From Deltaproteobacteria bacterium (GTDB lineage Bacteria > Desulfobacterota > Binatia > Binatales > Binataceae): a stretch of 64,000 nucleotides of DNA. Below the pieces are notes generated by a model. That model saw only the letters and a list, made by a program, of their open reading frames with translations. It was not told the DNA's origin and ran no database searches. The stretch is taken from the NCBI GenBank assembly GCA_021801125.1, contig JAJYYI010000127.1, forward strand, positions 3,835 through 67,834, written 5' to 3'. The number at the start of each line of letters is the position of its first letter. Position 1 is the first letter of the stretch. Positions 25,115 to 55,800 of this stretch are shown here, in pieces. The translations under genes were made by a program, and so were the position numbers.

Positions 25115-26332
25115 ATGATTGCCGTGCGATTAAAGGACCGAACTATCGTGGTCGGCGTGACCGCGAGCATCGCCGCCTACAAGGCTGCGGAGTTGGTTCG
25201 CGTGCTCGTTGCGCGTGGCGCCAAAGTCAAGGTGATGATCACGCGAGGCGCCGCAGAGTTCATCGCGCCGCTCACGTTCCAAACGCTAAGCGGAAGCCCC
25301 GTCGCTTCCGACCTCTTCAGCCTTACTCAAGAGTCGGAAATAGGCCATATTCGACTGGCCGACATGGCCGACGCTATCGTTATCGCGCCGGCCAGCGCCG
25401 ATTTCATCGCCAAGGTCGCGCTGGGACTGGCTGATGACTTGCCGAGCACCGTGCTGCTCGCGACCCGATGTCCCGTCGCTTTCGCACCCGCGATGAACGT
25501 GCATATGTATCAGCACCCTGCGACGACCGAGAACTTAAATCGCCTGCGGGCTCGCGGCTGCGCGATTATCGAGCCCGAGCAAGGCTCGCTTGCTTGCGGA
25601 TACGAGGGAGTGGGACGGCTCGCTGAGCCAGCCGACATCGCCGACGAAGTCGAGCGCCTGGTCTGCGCGCGAGACCTGGCCGGCGAGCGCATATTGATCA
25701 CCGCCGGTCCCACGCAGGAGCCGATAGATCCGGTGCGCTTCGTATCTAATCGCTCGTCGGGCAAGATGGGATTCGCATTGGCGCGGGCCGCCTGGATGCG
25801 CGGCGCTGATGTGCGTCTGGTGGCAGGGCCTAGCGCGCAGCGCGCCGCGCGATCGGTCGAGCGGTTCGACGTGCGTCAAGCGAGCGAGATGCTGGATTTG
25901 ACGGCGCGAAACTTTCCTTGGTGCACCACGTTGATCATGGCTGCCGCGGTGGCTGATTTCCGCCCCACCAAGCCGGCTGCGCGAAAAATAAAAAAACGAG
26001 CTGACGGCCTGACGCTTACGCTGGAGCCGATCGCGGATGAGTTGCCTAATCTAGCCCAAAAAAAGGGCGCGCGGCTCATGGTGGGCTTCGCCGCCGAGAC
26101 CGACTCGTTGCGCGAAAACGCGCTTAAGAAACTGCGCGAAAAAAATCTCGACTTGATAGTAGGCAACGACGTGTCGCAGCAAGGCGCCGGCTTCGGCACA
26201 GACACTAATATCGTGACTATCACAGACCGCGAAGGGCTCACCGAGAATTATCCGATGATGTCTAAAGACGACGTCGCGCACGTAATCCTCGACTGGGTAG
26301 TTCGGATGCGTCGGGCTAGAGAAGGGCCGTAG
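25115..26332 (+). CDS. coaBC: Bifunctional phosphopantothenoylcysteine decarboxylase / phosphopantothenate-cysteine ligase.
   Basis: Conserved start [24 protein letters not shown] at 25115; the track ORF has a 48-aa extension. The flavoprotein N-domain and CoaB C-domain (GKMGFALA) are present. Confidence 0.9.
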
Positions 26333-30999: not shown

Positions 31000-31839
31000 A
31001 TGCAAGAAGCAACGGACTCTCTGATTGCCCGGCGAGATCTGCTTCGGATCGGGGCGCTTGCCGGTGTTGGCATGGCAACCCTGCTCGGAGGGCTTGGTGT
31101 CAGGCAGCCCCGGGCCCAAGGGATATCCAGTTACTGCAACTCATTCGGCAAAGCCGTCGGCCCCCACGACGCGTTGCAAGCGCTGATTGACGGGAATAAG
31201 CGCTGGGCAACGGGGATGCAAACACATCCGGGGGAAGATCCCTCGCAACGTGAGTGCAATGCCGAACACTTTCAGACGCCGTTCGCGGCGATTCTGTCGT
31301 GCGTCGATTCACGGGTTCCTCCGGCATTGATCTTCGATTGGGGCATCGGCGACCTGTTCGTGGCCCGCGTCGCCGGCAACAGCGTGGTGCCAATTCTCGA
31401 GGATAGCCTCAGATATGGCACAGAGAGCTTGGGGGCAGCGGTGCTGTTCGTTCTGGGCCATACTGCTTGCGGCGCTATCTCGGCTGCCGTCGATTATTAT
31501 TTACGGCAGCTTGCCGATAATCCTTACGAAGAGTCCATCCCCGAGTTTGCCCCTGCCGACCCCAGTTCGAAGGATTCCGGGGCCCCATCACCTGAATACG
31601 CATTCATACCGCCGATATTGCCAGCGGTTAAGGTCGCGCGCAGAATCGTTAAACAGCAGGGTGGCGACCCGAATGATCCCACGCAGGTGATTCCAGTCGC
31701 AACGAACCAACACGTTATTCTAACGGTTGAATACTTGAGTTCGCGGCCGCCTTTTCGGAGGCTAGTTAAGGACGACAAGCTTCTGGTCAAGGGTGGCGTA
31801 TACGATATAGGTACCTATTGGGTCACCGTTTTGATTTAG
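31000..31839 (+). CDS. Beta-class carbonic anhydrase with a Tat signal.
   Basis: Probable start MQEATDSLIARRDLLRIGALAGVG (twin-arginine) after AGGAGAGG. Zinc ligands CVDSR ... HTACG. Confidence 0.85.
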   Translation: MQEATDSLIARRDLLRIGALAGVGMATLLGGLGVRQPRAQGISSYCNSFGKAVGPHDALQALIDGNKRWATGMQTHPGEDPSQRECNAEHFQTPFAAILSCVDSRVPPALIFDWGIGDLFVARVAGNSVVPILEDSLRYGTESLGAAVLFVLGHTACGAISAAVDYYLRQLADNPYEESIPEFAPADPSSKDSGAPSPEYAFIPPILPAVKVARRIVKQQGGDPNDPTQVIPVATNQHVILTVEYLSSRPPFRRLVKDDKLLVKGGVYDIGTYWVTVLI

Positions 31840-31871
31840 CGCGTCGACAAGGAGGGGGGGGCCTCAAACCG

Positions 31872-32342
31872 ATGATAGAGCAGAGACTACGTAGGTTGAG
31901 GAAAATTGCAAACTGGAAAAGTGCGCTGCACGGCGGCGTGGCATCCAAGGCTCGCCAACTGCCGCTGCTGACCGTCTTGTCGGTCTCTCTGCTCGCCCTT
32001 AGCGGATGTGTTACGGAAAACGCGTCTTTGCAGCAAGAGCGGCTCGAACTGGTGCGCGACCAAATCGAGCTTACCAAACTCCATATAGAACTGGCTAAGG
32101 CGGCGCTTGCAAGGTTGCAGTCCCAAACGCAACAAGACCAGGCGTTGGCCCAGGCTCGCCGGGCGGGCGCCGCTGACCTTCAGGCGCGGCGCACCGCGAC
32201 GGTCGTGCTCTTGCGGAATATCGCGCGCGAACAACGCGGGACTACCGGCAAGACCTACTCAAGCCTGGCCGACTGGGTCGAAGCGGGCGGCGACCCGGAC
32301 CGTGCTCTACAAGCTGCGCTGCCCAACGGAATTCCCAAGTAG
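31872..32342 (+). CDS. Hypothetical lipoprotein.
   Basis: Strong RBS AGGAGGGGGGG, then MIEQRL...LLALSGC (lipobox), then a coiled-coil-like Q/A/R-rich region. Confidence 0.5.
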   Translation: MIEQRLRRLRKIANWKSALHGGVASKARQLPLLTVLSVSLLALSGCVTENASLQQERLELVRDQIELTKLHIELAKAALARLQSQTQQDQALAQARRAGAADLQARRTATVVLLRNIAREQRGTTGKTYSSLADWVEAGGDPDRALQAALPNGIPK

Positions 32343-32382
32343 CCCGCAAGCGGCGCCCGTTCCGATTCCCCGTGAAATCGGT

Positions 32383-33180
32383 TTACGGGAAAAACGGATA
32401 TCCCATCCCAGGGTAGAAGCCGCCCATCCCACCCCCGATAAAACCCAAGCCGATTATCGCGCCGATACCTAGCACCGGCAGCAGATAGTCGAGCCAAGAT
32501 CCCGACGGCGACCCACTTTGTTGGGGGAACTGCTGAGCCTGGTAGCTTTGCAGACTCCCCAACGAGCCCAGGCCGTTCGCCGGCAGGCTATTTTGGTTGG
32601 CGGCAAGGTAGGCGTTTTGCCCCGAAGTGGACGGCGTTCCCGCAGGCTGCTGGGGCTGCAGGTTCAAAAGCTCCGGTCGAACCTTTATCGCGTTTACTAT
32701 TTTGACGCTCGGGTCATCGAGCAGCCGCCGCACCTTGGCTTCCGCATCCGATTTCCCGTAGGGCGTGGCAACGAAGCCGTAGAGCGTTACCTCACGATCG
32801 CCGTATCGATCGCGCCGCACCTCGGCCCTGACCAGCGGCAGCCGGTTGTGTTCCAGGTAGCGGGTCAGCTCGTCGCTTTGCTCGACGACTGGCCCGCTGA
32901 GCACGATCGGCGCGGGAGCGGGACCTGACGACCCGGCCTGCGATAGCGTCTCGCTGGTACTTTGCGCCGTCGACTGCGCTCCGCCCGTCGCGGGAGAAGA
33001 AAACGCTGGCGGTGGAGCGTTCGGCGCAGACATCGTCGCGCAAGACTGCGTCGTAACGAGCAAAATCGCAAGCCAGACTGAAATCATTCGTCGCGCGCTC
33101 AGCCGCAAAGGGAGGAAAGCCTCAGGCAACACAACTTTTGACGCCCGGCAAGGGCCCCCTATTCGAGTCGAACGCTCCAC
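32383..33180 (-). CDS. Hypothetical secreted or membrane protein with a BON-like domain, a Q/S-rich linker and a C-terminal glycine-zipper segment.
   Basis: VTLYGFVATPYGKSDAEAKVRRLLDDPSVKIVNAIKV resembles a BON domain. The C-terminus reads GIGAIIGLGFIGGGMGGFYPGMGYPFFP. Confidence 0.45.
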   Translation of the reverse strand: MERSTRIGGPCRASKVVLPEAFLPLRLSARRMISVWLAILLVTTQSCATMSAPNAPPPAFSSPATGGAQSTAQSTSETLSQAGSSGPAPAPIVLSGPVVEQSDELTRYLEHNRLPLVRAEVRRDRYGDREVTLYGFVATPYGKSDAEAKVRRLLDDPSVKIVNAIKVRPELLNLQPQQPAGTPSTSGQNAYLAANQNSLPANGLGSLGSLQSYQAQQFPQQSGSPSGSWLDYLLPVLGIGAIIGLGFIGGGMGGFYPGMGYPFFP

Positions 33181-33536
33181 GTCACGTCAGCCGCCGCCTG
33201 CCCTTGGCTTCGCCCGGCGCAACCTTCCCTCACGGCTGCAGCTCGCCGGTCGCGGAGCATACGGAAAGCCCGTTGCTTCTCGCCTGCGCTGTCCCGTCAA
33301 GCCTGATCATCGCCGCGTTGACCATGGGCCGGGTCGCATCCGGCGTGAGACCAAACGCTCCCATGCCGCCCGATCCGAAGAGCGCCATATTCGGCTAGAC
33401 GCACGCGCTTTTCACCTTTTAATTGGTGGTCGTATACAACCCTACGCTCACCCTTCGAGCCGCCTGGAGACGTGGTCATAACCCGTCTTGCGGCGAACTT
33501 TGAAGCGGGGCGTAGGCCGGCTACCGTGGGCAACTA

Positions 33537-34397
33537 TCAACGCGCTATGGTAGCTCTCAGTGACGCGCCTGCCACACCCCCAACAGAGGCGCCGAAGATT
33601 GCGCCGACGCACGAGCTGGCGGCGAGCTCCAGTGGCAGCGAAGCGCAGCGAAGCAGACCTCCAGGAAGGCGAAGCAGCAGAAAGAGACCAGCTACACCTA
33701 CGCCGAAGACGACGGGACCGGACCGAGTCCGTATTTGGGTTACAAACGCCGCTAAAAACACCGGCAACGATGAGTAAAGCCCGCTCACCGCGAAGTAGAG
33801 TGCTTCATCCCGAGGATTGTCAAACGCGGTGTTGACCCATGCGCTCGTTCTACAATACTCCAGCAAATGATTCATCGAACACGAAGCGCACAGACCCAAG
33901 AAAAGACCCATCGCGATGAGGCCCCCAAGCGCCGCCCACGATGCAGTGATTCCAAGGGGCAGCTTTTTATACCGCACGACTACCAGCGCTACCCCTACGT
34001 AGAGCGCGTTCCACAGCGCGCCGACGCTCAGTAGCGTTGGCGGTGCAAAAGCCGAGAGGCGGGCGTCTCGTTGTACAATCCAGGCCGACGCGACCGAAAA
34101 CAGCACGCCAACCAGAATGGAGAACAAGGCGGAGCGCCGGGCCTGCACCCGCTTTCTGTTGCCGGCCACGACCTCCAGGTCGGTGAGAATTTGCGCGCGC
34201 AGCGTCTGCGCCGCAGACGCCGGCACTTCCTGCTGGCGGAGCGTTCCCAGTCTTTGCCAAACCAATTGCATTTCGATCCACTTCAACTGGCATCGCACGC
34301 ACGATCGTAGATGTTCGTCGAGCTCTGCGCTCAAAGAGGTCTCGCCAACGCTTAGAATATCCATCAGCTCGATCTGAATACGCGCACAGTTATCCAC
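33537..34397 (-). CDS. Zinc-binding anti-sigma factor (ZAS-type), multi-pass membrane protein.
   Basis: N-terminal HLRSCVRCQ (HxxxCxxC) followed by several TM helices. It lies immediately downstream of a sigma-70 ECF gene remnant. Confidence 0.7.
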   Translation of the reverse strand: MDNCARIQIELMDILSVGETSLSAELDEHLRSCVRCQLKWIEMQLVWQRLGTLRQQEVPASAAQTLRAQILTDLEVVAGNRKRVQARRSALFSILVGVLFSVASAWIVQRDARLSAFAPPTLLSVGALWNALYVGVALVVVRYKKLPLGITASWAALGGLIAMGLFLGLCASCSMNHLLEYCRTSAWVNTAFDNPRDEALYFAVSGLYSSLPVFLAAFVTQIRTRSGPVVFGVGVAGLFLLLRLPGGLLRCASLPLELAASSCVGAIFGASVGGVAGASLRATIAR

Positions 34398-34494
34398 GGG
34401 CCACCTGGTATCGCGCCTCGGAGATTCAACCAGCGATGAAAGTATCGCAACACGAGATCTTCGGACTCTTTAACGAGCGAAGATGCGCATACGT

Positions 34495-34771
34495 TTAAGA
34501 CGTTACACTGGCCTGCTCATTCGCCATGCAGCGCAAGCTTGACGCGCAACCGCGTGAGCGCGCCGTCGTTCGTTGCGCACGGTGAGTAATAAAAACGCTG
34601 GCCGCATAGCGTCGGAACAGTTCTTCGAAAGCGCAGCTGTCGCCGTCGACGTACAGGACCATGAGTGCACCATCCGAACGATGCTCGTACGTCTTCATCG
34701 TAACCAAACGAGGCTGGGCGGCAAAAGTTACCGGACCGCGAAATTCGCGACCCAGATGAAAGCCCACTCAC
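34495..34771 (-). pseudogene. ECF sigma-70 factor remnant. N-terminal ~55 codons are fused out of frame to the last ~13 codons; regions 2-4 are deleted.
   Basis: Two overlapping track ORFs: MGFHLGREFRGPVTFAAQPRLVTMKTYEHRSDGALMVLYVDGDSCAFEELFRRYAASVF... and ...LTRLRVKLALHGE. They match the start and end of the intact paralog 37241..37882. The junction sequence AGCGCGCC is at 34557-34564. Confidence 0.7.
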
Positions 34772-34809
34772 TCTGGCGATGTTGAGCGCGCGACGTTACC
34801 GTTGGCAGG

Positions 34810-34839
34810 TTACGAAGATCACGCCTTCCCTCGCTTAAA
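34810..34839 (-). promoter_or_regulatory. Degenerate ECF-type promoter upstream of the sigma remnant (TTTAAG-N17-CGTAA; the -35 AAC is mutated to AAG).
   Basis: Compared with the copy-B promoter by eye. Confidence 0.3.
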
Positions 34840-35340
34840 CGAACCATCGCTGTGCCGGTACACGCGTCCGTAGCCTCGCCTTCGGCTGTTGGGTCAGACT
34901 ATGCCTTGCGCTTGCGGGGCTCGGCAGACCATAAGGACTACTAGTTCGCCGCCGCCTCTCGCGCACGCATCGACGAATAGCGATTCCCGCGAGGTCCCGA
35001 GCGGCGCCGGGAGCTAAATGCTTCCAGCCGCACGGTTAAGCGGAGCGCCTCGACGACCGGTGCTATTAAATCCGTCCCAAATCGCGCGCATGGCCTCCAT
35101 TGCAAAAATGCTAAGTACCTAGACTAACCTGCATTTTTCTGGCGCGAGCACCGGCACGGCATGCCGTCTAGCGCAAACTACGCCGCGGCGACGAGGCTCT
35201 CGCACGCTTGGCGGCTACTTCCCTTGAAAGGACGCGGCTTACGGGCCTCGTCGTTCCACCCAAGACAACGGCCTCCTGAGCGCGGACTTTTCTGCTTCAC
35301 CACGGCTGCGGCAATAACCTCAGAAAGTCAGGGCAACGAT

Positions 35341-35366
35341 GTAACTTTCAAGCCGCTTTGCCGTTA
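35341..35366 (+). promoter_or_regulatory. Candidate ECF-sigma-dependent promoter GTAACTT-N-CGTTA (AAC-N16-CGT), about 140 nt upstream of the barrel-like protein gene.
   Basis: Read directly. It resembles the putative autoregulatory promoter of the adjacent ECF sigma gene (TTAACTT...CGTAA). Confidence 0.35.
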
Positions 35367-35508
35367 TAAAGGGCCGGAATTCAAATTTCCTGCGTCCGGG
35401 ACGGCTTCGCGGCGAGCGGGTGCGTGGGTGGTAGGGTACGCGTAGTCGTAGCCACGCGAGTCAGCTTACCTGGTCGCCGGATGCCGAAAACTAAAAGGAG
35501 GTATGCAC

Positions 35509-36618
35509 ATGAAAGTGCATAGGTTTTTGGCGATCTTAGCGCTGGCGGGTGGGTTAGGACTGACCTTCATAGGCGCCGCCAACGCACAGGTCGGCGTGGG
35601 TTCAATATACAGCTACAGGGGCGTAGGCTTTACGCCTTCTGCACCGGTTCCGCAAAGCACCGGTCTTGGGACATACTACAACTTTTTCAACAACGAGGAC
35701 GCCGACCTCTACGGACTGCCGGCGAATCTGCTCTTCGGCGCGTGGTTCAGCACCTATATTAGCGACGGCGCCTTCATGGGCCCCAACGGTAGCAAGGTGG
35801 CCGGCGCACCAAACGGCGGCAACGTGTGGGCAAACGTCGCGTATATCAACTGGATCTATCCACTCCAGTTCGATACCCCAAGCTTCCGGGTGGCATTCAA
35901 CGCCTTTATGCCTATAATCGCGGCCAGCACCGAAGTTGCGGGACCGACGGAGTTTTGGTTCACCCCGCTTGAAATGTTCTACTCGTACCACCAATTCCGC
36001 TTCCTGCGTGATTCCACGTTTTTCGGCCCTTACCTCTCGCTGCCGGTCGGCGGAGGGTTCGGTTTTACTCCGGCTAACGGCCAGGTCAACCAGTACAACT
36101 TCGCGTGGTTAATGGAAGGTTGGTACCAATTCCAACACATGGATGAACTGGCGCTGGGCAACATGGGCCTCGGTTGGCTCAACACCTTGGAGTTCCAGCC
36201 ATGGTTCTCTTATAACCACCAGCTCAATACCACGCCGAATTTGCCGGCGAGTGCCGTATTCAGCACTGCCGGTGCAGCTCAGTTGGGGATTCCGGGAACG
36301 CAGCTCGGGGGCTACATGCCCGGGGATAACATCGACGCGGGCGGTATCTTCAGCTATGGCCTGAAGCAGCTAAACCCCGCACTCAAGAACTGGCGTATCG
36401 GCATGGTGTTCGACAGCGACTTCAGCGTGTTCCAGAACACCTGGGCCGGTGCTCCGATTAAAAACACCGCGGTCGAGATGGTGGACGTAGGGCCCAGCAT
36501 CCAGTACGCCAAGGGCGACTTCGTGTTGTGGTTCTACTACACCACTAACGTGCACACCCAAAACTACTACGGCTTGCAGCAGTTCTTCCTCCAGCTCTAC
36601 TACTTCTTCAACCTGTGA
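35509..36618 (+). CDS. Secreted aromatic-rich protein, probable outer-membrane beta-barrel (resembles phenol-degradation-like OMP family proteins).
   Basis: AAGGAGG lies 7 nt before the ATG at 35509. Signal peptide MKVHRFLAILALAGGLGLTFIGAANAQ. Alternating aromatic/Gly-rich sequence ending ...LYYFFNL. Codon usage appears lower in GC than the surrounding genes. Confidence 0.6.
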   Translation: MKVHRFLAILALAGGLGLTFIGAANAQVGVGSIYSYRGVGFTPSAPVPQSTGLGTYYNFFNNEDADLYGLPANLLFGAWFSTYISDGAFMGPNGSKVAGAPNGGNVWANVAYINWIYPLQFDTPSFRVAFNAFMPIIAASTEVAGPTEFWFTPLEMFYSYHQFRFLRDSTFFGPYLSLPVGGGFGFTPANGQVNQYNFAWLMEGWYQFQHMDELALGNMGLGWLNTLEFQPWFSYNHQLNTTPNLPASAVFSTAGAAQLGIPGTQLGGYMPGDNIDAGGIFSYGLKQLNPALKNWRIGMVFDSDFSVFQNTWAGAPIKNTAVEMVDVGPSIQYAKGDFVLWFYYTTNVHTQNYYGLQQFFLQLYYFFNL

Positions 36619-36648
36619 GCCTCGCGCTGGCCGCTGCAGCAGAAAACG

Positions 36649-36670
36649 GGCTTCGTGCGGAAGCTTTTGA
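36649..36670 (+). terminator. Short hairpin GCTTCG-TG-CGGAAGC followed by TTTTGAG, 30 nt after the barrel-like protein stop. Weak intrinsic terminator.
   Basis: Read directly. Confidence 0.3.
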
Positions 36671-36709
36671 GAGGCTGAGCCACCGGAGGTAAGCATCGCG
36701 ATTCCGCTC

Positions 36710-36827
36710 GCGGCGCCCGCACGAGCGACCCCGCGGTTAAACGGTTTTCCGCCGGCCCACCCGCTTCTAAGGGACCTCCTCCCGAACGGAAGTGGAAGGT
36801 AAGCGGGGTCGCTCGTGCGGGCGCCGC
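36710..36827. repeat. Perfect 25-bp inverted repeat (GCGGCGCCCGCACGAGCGACCCCGC ... GCGGGGTCGCTCGTGCGGGCGCCGC) enclosing a 68-nt spacer that has its own 7-bp sub-hairpin, followed by CTTACTTTTGG.
   Basis: Read directly: 36710-36734 pairs with 36803-36827. Confidence 0.6.
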
Positions 36828-37240
36828 CTTACTTTTGGCCTTGCCACGCGAGCAAACGTGAGCAACAAAACTCGGCGTGATTTTATGTTAGTGATCCCGA
36901 GGTGCCCTGCCGCCCACATGGGCACCCGGCGTAACGCCGTTATCTATTTCAAAATCTCTTCTATCCCGAATTTCCGATATAGGCCCAGCCGGTCAAGGCC
37001 GTATAAAGCACAAACTTTGACCGTCACGCAAACGGTAGGACACTTCTTATCGCGCGGACTCGGGCTCGCCGACGAACTGAGGAGACGTGCGACATTGCGT
37101 GGGCCTACGCCAGGCGGTCCATCTCCGGCTGGCAGTCAGAGAGCGCATCTCCTCTAGCGATAACAGTATCCGCGACTTGAGATCTCGGACTCTTTAGCCG
37201 GCGACGTCGCGCATACTTTTGAGATGCTGCACCACCATGC

Positions 37241-37882
37241 TCATTCGGCGTGCAGCGCAAGCTTGACGCGCAGCTGCGTGAGCGCGCGGAACAATCTCAC
37301 CTTTACCGCTCCTTGCGAAATCCCCAGCACGCCGGCTATCTCCGCGTTGCTCAACCCATGGTAGCGGCTCAAAAGCACCACCTCGCGCATCCCTTCCGGC
37401 AACGCAGCGATCGCCTGCTCTAAAACTCGGCCCGTCTCGGCGGCGACCGCCATCGCCTCCGGGGAAGGCGCAGTGACCGCGTCGCTCGCGTGATCCGTCT
37501 CAGCCTCCTCAGCTTTGCTAGTCGTGCGATGCTTGTGCTCGGCTCCGCTTCGTTCATCCCGCAGAAGATTCGTGGCGATAGTAAATAGAAACGTCTTAAA
37601 GAATCCGGCGCGATAGCTCTTGCGGCTGCGATGCAGGTGCAGGAAGGTCGCCTGAAAAAGGTCTTCCGCAAGCGCGCGATCGTTCGTTGCGCGCAGTAAG
37701 TAGCTAAAAACGCTGGCCGCGTGGCGTCTGAACAGTTCCTCGAAGGCTAGGCTGTCACCGTCGGCGTACAGGACCATGAGTGCATCATCCGAACTCTCCT
37801 GGTACGTCTTCATCGTAACCAAACGAGGCTGCGCGGCAAAAGTTACCGGACCGCGAAATTCATGACCCGGGTAACCGCCCAC
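37241..37882 (-). CDS. RNA polymerase sigma-70 factor, ECF subfamily.
   Basis: ...ALMVLYADGDSLAFEELFRRHAASVFSYLLR (region 2) ... VLLSRYHGLSNAEIAGVLGISQGAVKVRLFRALTQLR (region 4 HTH). The start could instead be the internal MKTYQE at 37813. Confidence 0.8.
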   Translation of the reverse strand: MGGYPGHEFRGPVTFAAQPRLVTMKTYQESSDDALMVLYADGDSLAFEELFRRHAASVFSYLLRATNDRALAEDLFQATFLHLHRSRKSYRAGFFKTFLFTIATNLLRDERSGAEHKHRTTSKAEEAETDHASDAVTAPSPEAMAVAAETGRVLEQAIAALPEGMREVVLLSRYHGLSNAEIAGVLGISQGAVKVRLFRALTQLRVKLALHAE

Positions 37883-37924
37883 TCACTTTGCCGTCGTCGA
37901 GCGCGGGACCTTACCATCGGCAGA

Positions 37925-37952
37925 TTACGAAGATGAACCCTTCCAAGTTAAA
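37925..37952 (-). promoter_or_regulatory. Candidate autoregulatory ECF promoter TTTAAC-N17-CGTAA upstream of the sigma gene.
   Basis: Read on the minus strand: gattcgTTTAACttggaagggttcatctTCGTAAtctg. Confidence 0.35.
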
Positions 37953-38180
37953 CGAATCGCTGATGCCTCAGTGTGGAACAATCTTCTGCACCTCATTACC
38001 AATCCCCCATCTTGCTGATCTCTTCACGGTTCGCTCGGAAACCAGACGGTCGAACTCCAATCTCGTGCTTAGAGAATGAGCGACGGAAAGTGCGTCTCGA
38101 ACTGCGAAAGCTTTCGACGCGATCCGCTTTGCGACCTCATGATCCGTTCCATTGATGAGCTATAAAGCCGCGAATAGTTC

Positions 38181-38228
38181 GGGGCGGGGCGCGCTGCCTT
38201 AGCCGAATCGGGCAGCGCACCCCGCCCC
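38181..38228. terminator. 18-bp GC-rich inverted repeat (GGGGCGGGGCGCGCTGCC-12 nt-GGCAGCGCACCCCGCCCC, one mismatch), 10 nt beyond the stop of minus-strand gene 38238..38579.
   Basis: Read directly. There is no clean U-tract, so it is a terminator-like stem or a protein-binding palindrome. Confidence 0.4.
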
Positions 38229-38237
38229 ATTTGCACC

Positions 38238-38579
38238 TCAGTTAGTGCGAGATGTAGCCCTCGAGTGGCTTACTACATCCGTCTGGCTGGAGCGCTCCGA
38301 GCTCCAGTCTCCTCCCCATTTGGGGCCGTAGGCGTCGATGTCACCTTGATGAAGGGGAGCAAAGTTCCGACCTTGAGTGAGATCGATGCCCCACTTGCCG
38401 TGGTAATTGTAATCAGCGTCTGGAGCGGAAATGGGCGGCGCAGCCTCCCCGGAGTTGTGGAGCGAGAGGGAGCCTTCGCATGAGCCCCAACAACCAGCGT
38501 AAGAGGGACCAACCGCCGCTGCGAAAAGAGCGCTCGCGGCGAGAGTCACAATCTTTCGTTTAACCGACTTGCGATCCAT
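38238..38579 (-). CDS. Small secreted hypothetical protein (113 aa; signal peptide, CWGSCEG motif, W/G/D-rich).
   Basis: GGAGG lies 12 nt upstream of the ATG. N-terminus MDRKSVKRKIVTLAASALFAAAVGPSYAG. Low-GC context. Confidence 0.45.
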   Translation of the reverse strand: MDRKSVKRKIVTLAASALFAAAVGPSYAGCWGSCEGSLSLHNSGEAAPPISAPDADYNYHGKWGIDLTQGRNFAPLHQGDIDAYGPKWGGDWSSERSSQTDVVSHSRATSRTN

Positions 38580-38981
38580 AAAGTTCTCATGCCTCCGTCA
38601 GCGAAATCCTCGGCTTCGAACCGCTCACACCGTCAGCCTGAGGGCCGAAAGCGCAACAGCTCGGAAGACCGCGGTTCGCGATCCAACCGATGGCTTGACC
38701 TGATGTCTTGGCTTTGAACGCCACGGCAAAGCCCCGGCGGGCTTCGCCCAAACGGCGCGGATGAAGACGACCGCGGCGCACGTCCGAAGCGCACGCCGCC
38801 CACGGCCTCCACGGACCCTTCGACCAGCGCTGAGGCGTAGACCAAACGGTCCTTAGCCTTCCGCAAAGGCTAGCGCTGGCGACGGGGCCTCAGATTAGAA
38901 CGGTCCTAAGACGCACCTCGCTTTTCCTAGCACGATAGGCGAGGGTACCGGTGAGAGGGGTTGAAGGCCGCGCAACGCCGT

Positions 38982-55566: not shown

Positions 55567-55800
55567 ATGGCTGATTACAGCGCTTCTCAAGGTGGCACCA
55601 GGGTTCTCACGGTTAGGGAACTGTCCGAATACCTGCGAGTGCATCCTTCAACCATCTATAGGTTGCTCAAGAATGGCCAGCTACCTGGCTTTAAGGTGGG
55701 TAGCGACTGGCGCTTCGACGTCGAAACGATCGACCGATGGCGCGCCTCGCAAAGCTCGATGAGCACCTTGGAGGGCCAAGTCAAGGAGTCAATGGTGTAA
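55567..55800 (+). CDS. Excisionase-family (MerR-like) helix-turn-helix DNA-binding protein, standalone.
   Basis: LTVRELSEYLRVHPSTIYRLLKNGQLPGFKVGSDWRFDVETIDRW. GGAGG lies 8 nt before the ATG and a TTGACA sits upstream. Confidence 0.65.
   Translation: MADYSASQGGTRVLTVRELSEYLRVHPSTIYRLLKNGQLPGFKVGSDWRFDVETIDRWRASQSSMSTLEGQVKESMV

Follow-up and report, generated by a model that had tools for sequence, protein, structure and literature searches.

An ECF sigma gene present twice, with a partly deleted copy beside a ZAS anti-sigma gene, in a Binataceae genome

Known sigma/anti-sigma systems and the present locus

The SigR-RsrA system of Streptomyces coelicolor consists of an extracytoplasmic function (ECF) sigma factor and a zinc-binding anti-sigma (ZAS) factor, RsrA, which is small and soluble. 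Membrane-anchored ZAS anti-sigma factors are known from mycobacteria: RslA, RsmA, and RskA, the partners of SigL, SigM, and SigK, have a single transmembrane helix and an extracytoplasmic domain. The RskA/SigK pair is a subject of PMC7509140. Here we analyzed an ECF sigma/ZAS anti-sigma locus in a stretch of 64,000 nucleotides (nt) from assembly GCA_021801125.1 (contig JAJYYI010000127.1, positions 3,835 to 67,834, forward strand), referred to as the window. In this locus, the anti-sigma gene is located directly downstream of a sigma gene remnant (in repeat copy A), and an intact sigma gene (sigma B, in repeat copy B) lies on the other side of an unrelated gene, the intervening gene (Table 1).

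The locus resembles SigR-RsrA in that the sigma factor has the sigma-2 and sigma-4 domains only, the anti-sigma factor carries an H-x3-C-x2-C motif plus an upstream Cys, and the sigma gene has a promoter of its own type in front of it. In contrast to the soluble RsrA, the anti-sigma factor of the window has approximately six predicted transmembrane segments and further conserved cysteines. In addition, the sigma copy beside the anti-sigma gene is dead and the working copy forms a transcription unit of its own. With RslA, RsmA, and RskA, the anti-sigma factor has in common that a cytoplasmic ZAS domain at the N terminus continues into a membrane part and that its gene is located immediately downstream of a sigma gene, whereas the present family is polytopic instead of having a single transmembrane helix, and its membrane domain has no Pfam model. 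The same sigma/anti-sigma family occurs in metagenome-assembled Binataceae genomes, at five distinct loci (L005, L007, L008, L019, and L020; L006 is the ENA copy of the L005 locus), hereafter called the relatives. Their sigma factors are 58-63% and their anti-sigma factors 39-40% identical to those of the window, their promoter motif is the same, and their sigma genes start near the -10 element. Unlike the relatives, the window contains two sigma copies (one dead), has no mercury resistance (mer) genes in its 64 kb, and has the promoter also in front of an unrelated secreted-protein gene.

Expansion and decay of ECF sigma paralogs were described for the Bacillus cereus group (PMC3171730). In both cases, ECF sigma genes were duplicated and then diverged or were lost; the difference is that the duplicate in the window appears to have functionally replaced the original, whose promoter stub was apparently kept for the anti-sigma gene. 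Systems of this kind are known, and the state of the locus is unusual without being surprising; its duplication and decay are of a fairly ordinary kind and leave the understanding of ECF systems unchanged. It is of interest as a natural example of a sigma/anti-sigma feedback loop that would have survived the separation of its genes, with a dead sigma gene apparently serving as the anti-sigma promoter cassette. Rewiring of the regulon would also be visible, since the intervening gene has a sigma-type promoter motif here, whereas its homologs in L010, L012, L013, and L014 have none.

We propose, with a probability of roughly 0.7, that the sigma gene was duplicated together with its promoter and short flanks, that the copy in the ancestral place was inactivated, and that sigma B supplies the sigma factor in a loop that is now split. 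Established at the locus are the repeat, the lesions, an intact anti-sigma gene, three promoter motifs, and, from the relatives, the ancestral pairing. The starting module would have comprised an ECF sigma factor and a zinc-binding membrane anti-sigma factor. After duplication, the copy directly upstream of the anti-sigma gene would have lost most of sigma regions 2 to 4 by a 390-bp in-frame deletion, and a separate 1-nt deletion would have shifted the frame of the remnant. Sigma B, encoded 3.1 kb upstream, would then be the only source of sigma protein. It would activate (i) its own promoter P_B, leading to positive autoregulation, (ii) the promoter of the remnant, P_A, from which a transcript would run through the 300-nt stub into the anti-sigma gene with its own ribosome-binding site, leading to negative feedback, and (iii) a third promoter, P_barrel, in front of the intervening gene. 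The feedback loop would be kept as two transcription units, with the stub providing the anti-sigma gene with its promoter and leader.

The repeat and the lesions of copy A

A repeat search, gapped local alignment, and self-BLAST all revealed copies A and B as a diverged direct repeat, both on the minus strand. In the repeat search, the copies appeared as two collinear blocks, offset by 3115 and 2724 nt. Self-BLAST (E = 4e-81 and 3e-26) pushed the 5' end to 34856/37967 and detected no other repeats of this kind in the window. An initial annotation, made from the sequence of the window, had described the unit as occurring twice at an estimated 85-90% identity. The alignment and self-BLAST bear out the repeat itself; the measured identity is slightly lower, 332/397 (83.6%), and ranges from 73% to 97% by segment. 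Homology continues through the flanks on both sides (approximately 150 nt on the leader side and 85 nt on the 3' side, 73-80% identity) and stops at 34432, 35 nt upstream of the anti-sigma GTG (34397), so the anti-sigma start does not belong to the unit as had been assumed. The segmental duplication suggested there agrees with the homology of both non-coding flanks and tells only part of the history, since comparison with the syntenic locus L013 (see below) points to an insertion and an inversion of the intervening gene as well.

Table 1. Features of the sigma/anti-sigma locus and aligned blocks of the repeat (window coordinates)
Feature	Position	Strand	Basis or identity
Anti-sigma factor, ZAS-type, 286 amino acids (aa), GTG start at 34397	33537..34397	-	alignment to relatives' proteins, hydropathy
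Repeat copy A (425 nt): leader, promoter, sigma remnant, 3' flank	34432..34856	-	local alignment, self-BLAST
Sigma pseudogene remnant, open frame of 67 codons from ATG at 34698	34495..34698	-	alignment, open reading frame (ORF)
P_A, putative ECF-type promoter	34708..34731	-	motif search
P_barrel, third sigma-type promoter motif, inside TGTAACTTTCAAGCCGCTTTGCCGTTATAAAGGG (few bases beyond each side), ~140 nt upstream of intervening gene	35341..35364	+	motif search
Intervening gene, signal-peptide protein of 369-371 aa, likely start ATG at 35509	35503..36618	+	ORF; 8 homologs
Perfect 25-bp GC-rich inverted repeat, 68-nt spacer	36710..36827	.	repeat search, folding -88.5 kcal/mol, z = -6.5
Repeat copy B (812 nt): leader with promoter, intact sigma gene, 85-nt 3' flank	37156..37967	-	local alignment, self-BLAST
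Sigma B, intact ECF sigma factor, 190 aa, ATG at 37813	37241..37813	-	Pfam, NCBIfam
390-nt segment (codons 46-175) in B, gone from A	37290..37679	-	alignment
P_B, putative ECF-type promoter GTAACTTTTGCCGCGCAGCCTCGT	37823..37846	-	motif search
Alignment block	A 34829-34590 = B 37944-37705	-	85% identity
Alignment block	A 34589-34566 = B 37703-37680	-	83% identity
Alignment block	A 34565-34462 = B 37289-37186	-	81% identity
Two further short alignment blocks	A to 34432 = B to 37156	-	

Sigma B matches the Pfam families Sigma70_r2 (E = 1.5e-13) and Sigma70_r4_2 (E = 6.8e-18) and scores 103 bits on NCBIfam TIGR02937 (cut-off 42.9). With sigma-2 and sigma-4 domains only and 190 aa (approximately 170-220 expected), it has the makeup of an ECF (group 4) factor. 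Its start codon is consistent with the N termini of homologs, an identical protein is on record (P0002), and the only clear change at a family-conserved position is Y31H (here and below, residue changes were judged by eye against homolog sequences). The nearest sigma homologs are 56-63% identical, one of them annotated as Candidatus Binataceae. A tblastn search detected neither an anti-sigma gene nor a relic of one beside sigma B, which therefore does not show the downstream anti-sigma gene that is typical of ECF factors, though not universal among them. Between the sigma B stop codon and the anti-sigma start codon lie 2,843 nt (3.1 kb from ATG to ATG, with B upstream), in agreement with the earlier description of the only intact sigma gene as lying about 2.8 kb away, with no anti-sigma gene adjoining it.

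In copy A, the missing 390 nt correspond to exactly 130 of the 190 codons, so that codon 45 is fused in frame to codon 176. In B, the missing segment is flanked by two direct copies of the 8-mer AGCGCGCG (plus strand), located at 37281-37288 and 37671-37678 (coding strand form CGCGCGCT, encoding R-A-L both times). A single hybrid repeat, AGCGCGCC, is left in A at the junction (34557-34564). A repeat at both ends in B and one copy at the junction in A are the signature of a microhomology-mediated deletion, as the initial annotation had recognized. It had located the first repeat and the hybrid correctly and had placed the second repeat 10 nt too far along, at 37681-37688; because of this, the deletion was given as exactly 400 bp, a length not divisible by three, and was held responsible for the frameshift. 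The frame is instead shifted by the independent loss of a single nucleotide, 24 nt upstream of the junction, where B 37704 has no counterpart between A 34589 and 34590.

Codons 1-36 are the only sigma sequence in the 67-codon open frame of the remnant, and the original stop codon is out of frame at 34518-34520, approximately 120 nt before the anti-sigma start. In the remnant, about 45 codons are fused to the final 15; the initial annotation had given these numbers as about 55 and about 13. With regions 2.2 to 4.1 deleted, the remnant fails the ECF domain test. With 130 codons deleted and a 1-nt frameshift, the sigma copy beside the anti-sigma gene is, judged by its sequence, a pseudogene, as had been proposed. 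Its changes at family-conserved positions are A17V, LLR to SPC, R to G at the junction, and Q to R near the C terminus. Between A and B, the proportion of synonymous differences (pS) is approximately 0.19, and the ratio of nonsynonymous to synonymous differences (pN/pS), based on 58 comparable codons, is 0.61. Because of this ratio, and of several changes at conserved positions in A versus one in B, the remnant looks to be under relaxed constraint.

Comparison of orthologous loci, one of the checks suggested at the outset, showed an overlapping sigma/anti-sigma pair in all five relatives. There, the sigma gene overlaps the start of the next gene by 8 nt in four loci and by 20 nt, as called, in L020. 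The gene after sigma encodes 298-304 aa, and the translated products (L005, L007, and L008) are orthologs of the anti-sigma factor. Because the relatives pair sigma and anti-sigma with an overlap, copy A is, on this comparison, the ancestrally placed sigma copy.

A and B also have features in common that are absent from the close homologs inspected, namely, a short C terminus (LRVKLALH[AG]E) and a spacing of 8 nt between the -10 element and the ATG. Because of this joint C terminus, the spacing, and the 85-nt 3' flank, the two copies are, as far as sequence can tell, descendants of a recent common ancestor. The homology of the flanks would be compatible with duplication in the genome and with acquisition from a close relative alike. 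It is thus conceivable, though unlikely, that the second copy is a xenolog from a closely related lineage, upon whose arrival the resident copy became dispensable and decayed. Such a transfer would suit the 16% divergence and the pS value, the mosaic appearance of the locus in comparison to the syntenic L013 (insertion and inversion), and the position of the module outside the mer context in which all five relatives have it. It is at odds with the lineage-specific C terminus and spacing, which no close homolog inspected has, and with the leader and 3' flank common to A and B. In addition, no donor-like sigma factor with 63-100% identity to sigma B was found among 5.8 billion protein clusters.

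The anti-sigma gene, the promoters, and the feedback loop

The anti-sigma gene has a ribosome-binding site (AGGTGG) 4 nt upstream of its GTG. The ZAS residues C4, H29, C33, and C36 are located at the N terminus of the protein, giving the H-x3-C-x2-C motif with upstream Cys of ZAS factors; hydropathy indicated approximately six membrane segments after residue 90, and further cysteines are found at positions 170, 173, 182, 251, and 263. Over its full length, the protein aligns at 39-40% identity with the 298-300-aa products of the genes that directly follow sigma in L005, L007, and L008. Its family is small, with only 53 representatives among 1.8 billion proteins in a full HMMER search; a word-indexed protein search returned only the anti-sigma factor itself, and a scan of genome contigs with this protein gave no related loci. 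The 47 aligned family members all have H29, C33, and C36, and at least 90% of them have C4. The window protein has all four and retains the other invariant or near-invariant residues as well (W129, P212, P245, and a glycine motif). Because all of these are kept, the anti-sigma factor looks functional. In the proposed loop, it would still bind sigma B. The Pfam family zf-HC2 (PF13490) is matched by 39/47 homologs (best E = 5.5e-11) and not by the window protein at E <= 1; the 286-aa protein has no significant Pfam match, and its NCBIfam match (NF052375, E = 1e-4) is weak and under the cut-off. Together with the Pfam and NCBIfam sigma domains, the ZAS residues of the family support the original assignment of the locus as an ECF sigma/ZAS anti-sigma system.

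The window and the relatives were scanned with the pattern GTAAC[CT]TT-N11-15-CGT[TC]. The window contains three occurrences versus approximately 0.075 expected, all at the sigma/anti-sigma locus. In the relatives, the family motif GTAACTTT-N13-CCGTT (GTAACyTT-N13-CCGTT) is located upstream of the sigma gene in 5/5 cases. In the window, GGTAACTTT-N13-TCGTT lies upstream of the sigma sequence in both A and B, with the AAC -35 and CGT -10 of ECF-type promoters as a sequence motif; the sequence before both ATG codons is GGTAACTTTTGCCGC[C/G]CAGCCTCGTT, followed by 8 nt and the ATG. P_A and P_B are identical in their -35 and -10 elements and differ by one spacer mismatch. It had been claimed that the ECF promoter of the remnant carries a -35 mutation from AAC to AAG. 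The difference exists, with AAC in A (34795-34797) and AAG in B (37910-37912), so that the AAG belongs to the intact copy and not to the remnant. Moreover, the site is not conserved in the relatives and is not part of the family promoter. A looser fourth match, GTAAC-N15-CCGT at 37871-37894 on the plus strand, lies in the leader of B, is not conserved in A, has no ORF ahead, and is probably due to chance.

P_A and P_B are contained in a 60-nt block (34687-34746) with 1 mismatch, compared to the 16% average divergence (P ~3e-4 per block and ~0.09 after correction for all blocks tested, which is suggestive only). The -10 element ends 8 nt before the ATG in the window copies and 8-12 nt before it across the window and the relatives (window 37806-37852 and 34691-34737; L005:5944-5990 and equivalents). 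Because this distance is short, the sigma mRNAs of the whole family are probably leaderless or nearly so. The third motif, P_barrel, precedes the intervening gene in the window only. Its sequence is close to the consensus of the relatives; the motif is absent upstream of the intervening gene's homologs in L010, L012, L013, and L014, and the upstream regions of these homologs have no common promoter and do not align with that of the window. A promoter scan of the minus strand in the P_A/anti-sigma region detected no sigma-70-like promoter. Between P_A and the anti-sigma start, the single terminator-like match is a weak 6-bp stem in the stub (34594-34613), and the whole scan gave 8 such matches compared to a mean of 6.1 in shuffled sequence, i.e., no excess.

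From these motifs, we infer that sigma B uses all three promoters and that P_A drives the anti-sigma gene. The initial annotation had concluded that the anti-sigma factor must act in trans or that the sigma factor is unrestrained. This dichotomy was overstated, because an anti-sigma protein acts on its sigma factor regardless of where its gene is located. Since sigma-type promoters of the same kind precede both genes, the loop has most likely been kept, divided over two transcription units, and an unrestrained sigma factor is unlikely.

The opposite outcome would be a broken circuit, in which P_A is silent for the anti-sigma gene or the anti-sigma factor is mismatched, so that sigma B is unrestrained or otherwise controlled and the anti-sigma factor is decaying or has a new role. 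Translational coupling has indeed been lost, with approximately 120 nt between the remnant stop codon and the anti-sigma start versus an overlap in the relatives, and the failure of the protein to match zf-HC2 would fit such a circuit. However, the anti-sigma ORF is intact with all family-invariant residues, next to a sigma copy with two disabling lesions and changes at conserved positions, and the -35 and -10 elements of P_A are unchanged. The 120-nt spacer also predates the duplication, since 85 nt of it are common to A and B. We therefore consider a broken circuit quite improbable.

A function of the remnant itself, either as a 67-aa peptide from a probably leaderless start or as a regulatory leader RNA, is very improbable. 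The remnant persists despite about 16% divergence, and its ORF begins at a conserved ATG. Up to the frameshift, however, the ORF retains no more than 36 residues of sigma region 2, which is insufficient for folding. The stub RNA folds no more strongly than usual (z = 0.71), the stub region has no Rfam match, and conservation is concentrated on the promoter and not on the ORF.

The structure of the locus was recovered repeatedly. A 226-kb JGI contig (3300039716) is collinear and ungapped with window positions 27241-47813 at 99.985% identity and spans the whole locus. Further contigs, from ENA (ERZ27236928) and Logan (SRR22746116, SRR22746121, SRR22746123, SRR22746138, and SRR13201255), run across the remnant junction or sigma B with 99.9-100% identity. 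Colinear contigs with the same structure come from at least eight other sequencing datasets, and the exact locus proteins are recorded in other assemblies. Base-by-base comparison with L001, L002, and L015, each over the part it covers, gave no single-nucleotide polymorphisms (SNPs) in 33537-37967. An artefact, with the 390-bp gap or the second copy stemming from a collapsed or chimeric assembly as the initial annotation had cautioned, is very unlikely: several short contigs do end in or near the repeat (L001 within sigma B, L016-L018 shortly after), as is often seen with repeats in short-read assemblies, whereas the remnant junction is the same in the ENA contig and in several Logan contigs of different runs, and a divergence of 16% is too great for assembler confusion. 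Outside the locus, the window and the ENA contig L001, otherwise 99.93% identical, differ by seven SNPs within 93 nt (25324-25416), which is a locally variable or recombined patch.

Several points weigh against a duplication in place followed by a preserved, split loop. The supporting assemblies are all metagenome or short-read assemblies. Direct repeats around an inverted gene fit no single simple event, and the order of events is not reconstructible. The 16% difference between A and B could reflect transfer of the second copy from a close relative, and the conservation of the promoter block, modest once corrected for the blocks tested, could reflect local gene conversion. The pN/pS value draws on 58 codons. 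Finally, promoter use, read-through from P_A into the anti-sigma gene, and binding of sigma B by the anti-sigma factor are predictions from sequence.

Mercury resistance genes and the history of the locus

In 5/5 relatives, the sigma/anti-sigma pair is flanked by mercury resistance genes and is divergent from a merTP-merA-HMA operon; merTP-like genes stand beside the loci, and HMA-domain proteins are encoded in all five. The 473-aa MerA of L005 scores 508 on TIGR02053 (cut-off 454), and both MerA-like proteins of this locus have a C-terminal Cys-Cys pair. A second MerA-like gene is present in most relatives and not in L007, and MerC was called only in L006, L019, and L020. The sigma-type motif precedes both the sigma gene and the divergent merTP-merA operon in all five mer-linked loci, which suggests ECF-type control of mercury resistance. 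Full-text literature searches found no description of such control, and nothing directly relevant on ECF sigma pseudogenes and duplication or on Binatia merA. By analogy with ZAS proteins, and given the mer context of the family, the anti-sigma factor is probably a sensor of thiol-reactive or metal stress.

The link between the family and mer genes is a more interesting lead than the duplication itself. As a tentative extension, for which the odds are somewhat below even, the sigma factor and its anti-sigma factor with six transmembrane segments could be a thiol- or metal-reactive switch for Binataceae mer operons, replacing MerR or acting alongside it. In the window, the module would then have left its mer context and been rewired onto a secreted protein, the loop would have been split, and the stub would be under selection only as a sigma-dependent, probably leaderless anti-sigma promoter. 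In L005, a gene for a small HTH_17 protein, with a sigma-type promoter in front of it, separates the mer operon from the sigma gene. The window encodes a homolog (46% identity over 59 aa) at 55603-55779 on the plus strand, with no sigma-type promoter nearby.

The flanks of the locus are syntenic with L013, which has an RNA methyltransferase gene and two small-protein genes, followed by PmbA/TldD, GT4, Cys/Met, and CoaBC genes. L013 lacks both sigma and anti-sigma genes, and its copy of the intervening gene (L013:8001-9104) has the opposite orientation relative to these flanks, i.e., the gene in the window is inverted. Comparison of the two arrangements suggests a history of at least four events: the module arrived, the intervening gene was inverted or re-inserted, the sigma gene was duplicated, and the deletions occurred. 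We considered a single inversion, tandem duplication, Campbell-type integration, and replicative transposition from an L013-like order; none of them leads to sigma copies in direct orientation on both sides of an inverted gene. The genes at 31818-33180, downstream of the anti-sigma gene (a 234-265-aa ORF, a 174-aa ORF, and a carbonic anhydrase gene), are also missing from L013 and may have arrived together with the sigma/anti-sigma module.

The intervening protein, which the initial annotation had called barrel-like, matches no Pfam, NCBIfam, or PDB profile, and an AlphaFold2 model from 8 sequences had a mean predicted local distance difference test score of 29 and was unusable; the barrel is therefore a putative label. 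The closest homologs of the gene (78-83% identity; L010-L012) are found in an unrelated context, downstream of an ArsC-family gene. An Rfam scan of 33000-38600 gave only spurious miRNA-like matches on the long hairpin formed by the 25-bp inverted repeat (27 bits versus a gathering score of 105). The intervening gene and sigma B converge on this inverted repeat, which lies between their 3' ends. No second copy occurs in the window or downstream of the homologs of the intervening gene. The repeat is followed by a T-rich tail on the plus strand, but not on the minus strand, and could be either a terminator or what is left of a small mobile element.

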